A stretch of 64,000 nucleotides of DNA, from assembly GCF_013122565.1 (NCBI RefSeq), contig NZ_CP053258.1, one strand, 5' to 3'. Positions 1,054-1,301 of the stretch are shown here, piece by piece (position 1 is the first letter of the stretch; every line of letters begins with the position of its first letter). Under the pieces are notes generated by a model that had not been told where the DNA came from, did no database searches, and saw nothing but the letters and a program-made list of their open reading frames with translations. The position numbers were made by a program, and so were the translations under genes. Source of the stretch: Escherichia coli. GTDB taxonomy: Bacteria > Pseudomonadota > Gammaproteobacteria > Enterobacterales > Enterobacteriaceae.

Positions 1054-1301
1054 ATTTCCCCCGTTCAGTTTTGCAGGTGAGTTTTGAACAAATGTATTTC
1101 TGCTTTTAATTTGTTCATAACCTTAGGTGGACATTGCACATATTTCCGACGAATAGATCACAATTTATGCTATTTTGATTTTCACGGTTGCGTTTGTTCA
1201 TGCTCGTAGAGTCAAACTGTGGTTGCCATCACAGATATAAATGCGCAAGAACTGAACAATTGCATTAAAGATTTAAATATGTTCAAAGTGAAGAATGAAT
1301 T
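1054..1301. promoter_or_regulatory. Divergent lsrA/lsrR promoter region with a CRP-like site (TGTGG-N6-TCACA, 1218-1233) and a 9-bp inverted repeat (TGAACAAAT...ATTTGTTCA, 1085-1117)
   Basis: Both motifs read directly from the sequence. lsr is known to be CRP-activated and LsrR-repressed; assigning these motifs to those factors is inference. Confidence 0.5.

Follow-up and report, generated by a model that had tools for sequence, protein, structure and literature searches.

The divergent intergenic region between lsrA and lsrR of Escherichia coli is, as a whole, already known as the lsr promoter controlled by LsrR and CRP. This regulation was reportedly established between 2005 and 2009, the CRP sites being said to come from Wang et al. 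2005 and the LsrR boxes from Xue et al. 2009. According to the literature, LsrR binds and represses both promoters and CRP is required; for the region as a whole, LsrR is bound there and is released by phospho-AI-2. In the map of Hauk et al. 2016, the boxes are ordered, from lsrR to lsrA, as p-lsrR-boxes, then CRPII, then CRPI, and lastly p-lsrA-boxes (PMC5137460). Most of the up-mutations of the promoter in the lsrA direction fell in the p-lsrR-box, about 170 bp from lsrA, and they derepress it, while CRPI is described as “very close” to TGTGCAAT (PMC5137460). On the lsrA side, another paper, which quotes Xue 2009, gives AAAACT and AAAACTGAA as the crucial motifs (PMC8487509), and later papers from related groups work with loose AT-rich LsrR motifs.

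The operator of Bacillus subtilis DeoR, a relative of LsrR with known structure, in front of dra-nupC-pdp, reads ATTGAACA...TGTTCAA (PMC11229326). Binding by DeoR requires the full operator and involves a tetramer made of two dimers; within each dimer, about one turn separates the two DNA-binding domains (PMC11229326).

Synthetic biology employs the lsr promoter as a quorum-sensing switch, and for LsrR this promoter is the reference target. The exact assignment of its operators and CRP sites matters for promoter engineering, and the exact operator also matters for judging the proposed LsrR targets (katG, ahpCF, fim, and cys genes) that have been called from loose AT-rich motifs.

The lsrA/lsrR intergenic region and its flanking genes

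The window, that is, the whole 64-kb stretch of E. coli DNA that we analyzed, contains the following lsr genes:

1..1053, minus strand: 5’ part of lsrA, AI-2 ABC transporter ATPase (NCBIfam NF011967 LsrA, 642 bits against a cutoff of 586; K-12 RefSeq annotation)
1302..2255, plus strand: lsrR, repressor of the SorC/DeoR subfamily (NCBIfam NF011947, 617 bits against a cutoff of 486; PDB 4GO1/4L5I, E 5e-202)
2334..3926, plus strand: lsrK, AI-2 kinase (NCBIfam NF008187, 999 bits)

The start codon of lsrA is the complement of 1051-1053 and the ATG of lsrR is at 1302, with the 248-bp intergenic region (1054-1301) between them. The LsrA, LsrR, and LsrK products each score above their curated NCBIfam cutoffs, and the LsrR operators described below lie between lsrA and lsrR, beside genes that score as LsrA, LsrR, and LsrK. 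The spacer is 100% identical to that of E. coli CP53 and differs from that of K-12 at a single position (C for A at 1244).

The intergenic region was found in 4178 of 5426 complete E. coli genomes, about a quarter being without it. In one E. coli genome (hit H10), only its first 49 nt are kept and an autotransporter is annotated there; this remnant looks like a deletion junction. Downstream of lsrK, the window carries an intact ORF of 1806 aa at 4457-9877, and the K-12 annotation gives its equivalent as a frameshifted “ECSE_1600 family autotransporter” pseudogene.

A conserved 33-bp unit in the intergenic region

A sequence-only reading of this region had proposed an inverted repeat with 9-bp arms as a candidate LsrR operator on the lsrA side. 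The repeat is indeed there, with TGAACAAAT at 1085-1093, a 15-nt spacer, and ATTTGTTCA at 1109-1117, and a repeat search describes it with 13-nt arms that are 92% complementary. The 9-bp arms and 15-nt gap are exact in E. coli, but the unit conserved among its relatives has 6-bp arms and a 21-bp gap, TGAACA-N21-TGTTCA. Across orthologs the outer 6 bp are symmetric, whereas arm positions 7, 8, and 9 are symmetric in only 0.40, 0.17, and 0.47 of the loci, respectively; the 9-bp arms are specific to E. coli. The spacer contains two full copies of the unit and the remnant of a third:

1085..1117, no strand: O1, lsrA-side LsrR operator, TGAACAAATG-N17-TGTTCA; exact pattern, conserved in orthologs
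1168..1200, no strand: O2 remnant; left arm decayed (TGCTAT), right arm TGTTCA (1195-1200) intact, 83 bp from O1
1253..1285, no strand: O3, lsrR-side LsrR operator, TGAACAATTG-N17-TGTTCA; exact pattern, within the published p-lsrR-box, kept in 36 loci

The exact TGAACA-N21-TGTTCA pattern has two matches in the 64 kb, both inside the 248-bp spacer (1085-1117 and 1253-1285), against a chance level of 0.01 matches in shuffled sequences, none of 100 shuffles reaching two. With up to 3 mismatches allowed, the full 9+9 pattern recovers O1 and O3 again, against 0.04 matches expected in the window. These two units form a direct repeat with 76% identity over 33 nt, 168 bp apart, and the right arms of O1 and O2 belong to another direct repeat, TTTGTTCAT at 1110-1118 and 1193-1201, with a spacing of 83. 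The distances of 83 and 168 bp between operator centres correspond to 7.9 and 16.0 helical turns.

For the comparison among species, we used 80 lsrR loci from other Enterobacterales, 69 of which have a divergent lsrA within reach. O1 is the most conserved intergenic element of these 69 loci, being exact in almost all of them and exact or with one mismatch in nearly all. Together with the recurrence of its pattern in the published p-lsrR-box and its DeoR-like ends, this conservation supports the earlier assignment of 1085-1117 as the lsrA-side LsrR operator. A second unit is located at +166-168 bp, the position of O3, in 36 loci (Escherichia, Citrobacter, Kluyvera, Pantoea, Rahnella, Hafnia, and others) and at +83-85 bp, the position of O2, in 33 loci (Photorhabdus, Xenorhabdus, Morganella, and Yersinia). 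Salmonella, Serratia H1w, and Entomohabitans have all three operators, the site at +83 carrying one mismatch in each of them, and intermediate O2 left arms (TGAATA, TGCGAA) are found in relatives of E. coli. The gap of the unit is also well kept: among 144 pattern matches in the ortholog loci, it is 21 in 128, 20 in 13, and 12 in 3.

In an alignment of nine genera, the invariant columns comprise the arms of O1, O2, and O3, a TAnnnT hexamer, GATCAC of CRPI, and TG..G/TCAC of CRPII. In this alignment, the left half of all three operators is asymmetric and reads TGAAYAAWTG on one and the same strand, while the symmetry of inner half-sites within the operator, tested across orthologs, is weak. The motif is absent from the lsr region of S. 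meliloti pSymB, where LsrR is 44% identical, and on this sequence comparison it is confined to Enterobacterales. The lsrA/lsrR-like spacer of S. meliloti (L083 2237-2500) has a repeated ATTCATG (ATTCATGAAATTCATG) beside the lsrA-like start, which may be a different operator.

The p-lsrR-box, published as -237 to -197 from the lsrA ATG (PMC5137460), corresponds to 1250-1290 in the window and encloses O3. One of its crucial motifs, AACAAT (1255-1260), is in the left arm of O3, and the other, AAGATTTAA (1268-1276), is in the spacer between the arms. The motifs published for the lsrA side map as follows:

1085..1080, minus strand: AAAACT, p-lsrA-box crucial motif (mapped by eye from PMC8487509, quoting Xue 2009)
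1072..1064, minus strand: AAAACTGAA, p-lsrA-box crucial motif (same source and mapping)

According to these positions, which come from secondary sources, the lsrA-side motifs adjoin O1 and touch its left arm by one base.

Near the beginning of lsrR (window 1302-1340), Met13 of the protein is invariant, and for many orthologs the alignment begins only at this residue or the start lies elsewhere. In Pantoea, Rahnella, and Hafnia, the lsrR start seems to be an ATG right after O3, at the equivalent of about 1288. The choice of the lsrR start codon, and hence the length of the leader, varies between genera.

CRP sites and predicted promoter geometry

The following CRP sites and promoter hexamer were located between the operators or beside them:

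1120..1125, minus strand: predicted -10 hexamer of lsrA (TAAGGT, TAnnnT); conserved position in orthologs
1144..1165, no strand: CRPI; consensus half GATCACAATT at 1156-1165 and poor lsrA-proximal half; centre 1154.5, 6/10 core matches
1215..1236, no strand: CRPII; core TGTGG-N6-TCACA at 1218-1233, centre 1225.5, 9/10 core matches

The core of CRPII had been pointed out in the sequence-only reading as a CRP-like site, and it reads TGTGG (1218-1222), TTGCCA, and TCACA (1229-1233). We scored CRP sites only by counting matches to the consensus TGTGA-N6-TCACA. By this count, the window has 3 matches with at most one mismatch, where 2.07 are expected and a third match is attained in 33 of 100 shuffles; scores of at least 9/10 are found at only 3 of about 64,000 positions. 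Since the CRPII core is not significant at the scale of the window, its support must come from position and conservation. In 28 of 29 non-redundant related loci, TCACA keeps the same distance from O3, the left half being always TG.., and for TG...TCACAG the distance is constant in 28-29 of the 29. The site also coincides with the published CRPII box (PMC5137460), and it is the top E. coli match (p 8.7e-7, FIMO) in the CRP scan of a 2026 preprint. There its centre is given as 178 bp away from lsrA and 70 bp away from lsrR, and both lsr and lsrR are reported to need CRP and to be activated by it. The assignment of 1218-1233 to CRP is therefore supported. The site may serve lsrR rather than lsrA.

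Because the published CRPI box is near TGTGCAAT (the complement of 1133-1140), CRPI is placed at about 1144-1165 and CRPII at 1218-1233. In 52 of 55 non-redundant loci, the TCAC[AG] of CRPI, within GATCACA (1156-1162) in E. coli, keeps a constant distance to O1; conservation does not extend to the promoter-proximal half of CRPI. Photorhabdus, Xenorhabdus, Morganella, and Yersinia keep CRPI and are without CRPII and O3. Just outside the CRPI core, at 1140-1146, the relatives of E. coli have a strongly conserved ATAAAAC where E. coli has ATATTTC; this block might belong to an extended CRP flank or form a -10-like element on the plus strand.

Next to O1, a TAnnnT hexamer occupies the lsrA -10 position in 41 of the 55 non-redundant loci and is shifted by 1-2 bp in 10 more, 9 of which move by the same +1 as CRPI, so that the hexamer keeps its distance from O1 in 51 of 55. 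A1120, T1124, and A1125 are invariant in the nine-genus alignment. A promoter and terminator scan of 1000-1360 returned no full sigma-70 promoter and no terminator; the lack of a full sigma-70 promoter and of a -35 match is expected for activator-dependent promoters. If TAAGGT is the -10 of lsrA, its transcription would begin at about 1113, within the O1 right arm, and the centre of CRPI (1154.5) would thereby be at -41.5, which is the class II position. On the other side, AACAAT (1255-1260) would be the -10 of lsrR, with the centre of CRPII (1225.5) at about -41.5 from a start near 1267. We infer these two starts, and the class II geometry, from sequence conservation. An alternative -10 for lsrR is TATAAA at 1236-1241, which is specific to E. 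coli.

The up-mutations of Hauk et al. 2016 include TGTGCAAT to TGTACAAT (G to A, window 1137) and an adjacent C to T, and they move the minus-strand TGCAAT (1138..1133) toward TATAAT, giving TACAAT and TGTAAT, respectively. We would infer that the 8- to 14-fold gain comes from the creation of a stronger -10 at 13 bp upstream of TAAGGT, a simpler explanation than the loss of a putative CytR site. The TGTGCAAT stretch (1133-1140) is not conserved among orthologs. In addition, CATATTTCC is present as an exact repeat at 1139-1147 and 1051-1059, and its minus strand, GGAAATATG, is the lsrA ribosome-binding site plus ATG. From the upstream copy of GGAAATATG, a frame of 8 codons runs to the TGA in the right arm of O1; since this copy precedes the predicted lsrA start, it is probably due to chance.

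Other readings of the conserved elements

It could be proposed that the lsrA-side site of LsrR is the AT-rich pair AAAACT/AAAACTGAA at 1064-1085, and that the repeat at 1085-1117 is bound otherwise or kept for promoter reasons. This pair does come from the footprinting group, which, in PMC8487509, names it with AACAAT/AAGATTTAA as the LsrR boxes, and the loose AT-rich motifs of the later papers follow the same line. We nevertheless find the proposal improbable, because the O1 arms do not change while the stretch 1064-1084, part of the lsrA 5’ leader, is variable even among E. coli, Citrobacter, and Salmonella, and because the DNA-binding residues of LsrR, including its recognition helix, are invariant among orthologs, so that a conserved site is expected. 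Furthermore, AAAACT shares the end base of the O1 arm, so that replacing its 6 bp harms the arm and the flanking sequence as well; the crucial motif on the lsrR side, AACAAT, is inside the TGAACA arm. An even more remote reading, which we hold to be very improbable and rejected, takes the inverted repeat as an RNA hairpin in the lsrA 5’ leader, acting on stability or translation, and not as a DNA site. The minus strand of 1124..1078 folds at -9.3 kcal/mol (z = -3.8), but such stability is a trivial consequence of the repeat, and the orthologs keep only 6 A/U-rich pairs with a 21-nt loop, without maintaining the pairing at positions 7-9. There are no compensatory changes, as the arms never vary, and no Rfam family is matched (E 0.98). 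A start near 1113 would also leave the upstream arm untranscribed, and the TGAACA-N21-TGTTCA unit recurs over the lsrR promoter, at 1253-1285, and at +83.

A third proposal would make TGTGG-N6-TCACA (1218-1233) a bystander, with CRP acting on lsr only through CRPI, or a site that serves lsrR alone. At the level of the whole window, its core pattern is no rarer than expected by chance, and CRPII is about 112 bp upstream of the predicted lsrA start; the four genera that keep CRPI without CRPII point in the same direction. Yet a bystander would hardly have its TCACA and the opposite TG fixed in 28-29 of 29 loci and invariant in nine genera, and the site is named CRPII in the published map and is the best CRP motif match in E. 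coli. The reported activation of both lsr and lsrR by CRP also speaks against the proposal, to which we give little credit.

A model of the divergent lsr promoters

We consider it likely, as the best explanation of the conserved elements, that the spacer carries two back-to-back promoters dependent on cAMP-CRP, each overlapped by an LsrR operator. O1 would cover about -4 to +29 of the lsrA promoter, and O3 would cover the -10 and start region of lsrR, from -14 to +19. cAMP-CRP would activate lsrA from CRPI and lsrR from CRPII, and phospho-AI-2 would release LsrR. Since 27 bp separate the outer hexamers, more than one dimer could span, each 33-bp unit is probably occupied by one LsrR tetramer, a dimer of dimers in which each dimer of DNA-binding domains would make a strong contact with an outer hexamer and a weak inner one; this proposal is drawn by analogy with the complexes of B. 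subtilis DeoR and CggR. The operators would be on the same face of the DNA (8 and 16 turns), which would allow cooperative binding or looping. The in-phase spacing, considered together with the published O3 mutations that derepress lsrA, suggests such cooperation or looping between operators.

A broader interpretation, which we put forward tentatively and regard as possible, though somewhat doubtful, is that the 33-bp unit, and not the AT-rich motifs, is the true recognition unit of LsrR in Enterobacterales; that the units, phased at 0, +83, and +168, repress both divergent promoters cooperatively or by looping; and that E. coli represents an intermediate stage, with its middle operator in decay and the control of lsrR taken over by a second module of CRP site plus operator. 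If this were true, three phased operators would explain why lsrA is derepressed by lsrR-side mutations 170 bp away, and the 33-bp operator would cast doubt on LsrR targets called from resemblance to the AT-rich motifs.

As a discovery, this analysis adds little, since control of the region by LsrR and CRP was already known. Relative to the sources consulted, the explicit 33-bp operator, the third, decaying operator, the conserved phasing, and the mismatch with the published lsrA-side motifs are new and amount to a modest refinement. In the open literature we found no LsrR palindrome or operator, RegPrecise entry, or looping account; the motif could still be published, and curated regulon databases may already hold it. 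The two assignments of the sequence-only reading are supported as correct but incomplete, covering about half of the elements: the operator at 1253-1285, the decayed operator at 1168-1200, and the lsrA-proximal CRP site at 1144-1165 were absent from it.

Comparison with known systems

The published E. coli lsrR-lsrA region is the same locus, one base off in the case of K-12, and O3, CRPII, and CRPI fit its published boxes. The published LsrR sites are short AT-rich motifs, whereas the TGAACA-N21-TGTTCA unit, its decayed copy, and the phasing at 83 and 168 bp are absent from the sources consulted.

LsrR is homologous to B. subtilis DeoR over its full length, and the recognition helices share R-x-x-VSRLL. 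The DeoR operator resembles that of LsrR in its TGAACA/TGTTCA ends and in overlapping the promoter. It differs in the gap between the outer hexamers, which is 24 bp for DeoR and 21 bp for LsrR, and in having a clear inner palindrome (TTGAA-N6-TTCAA) on one side, whereas the inner contacts of LsrR appear weak. The effectors are also different, deoxyribose-5-phosphate for DeoR and phospho-AI-2 for LsrR, and DeoR has one operator where LsrR has two or three.

The lsr promoters are also similar to divergent class II CRP promoters of sugar-uptake genes, in which CRP about 41.5 bp from the start replaces the -35 and a pathway-specific repressor overlaps the core promoter, although the lsr geometry is deduced from conservation and not from mapped starts. 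E. coli and its close relatives have two CRP sites, one for each promoter, whereas Yersinia, Photorhabdus, and Xenorhabdus have a single shared site.
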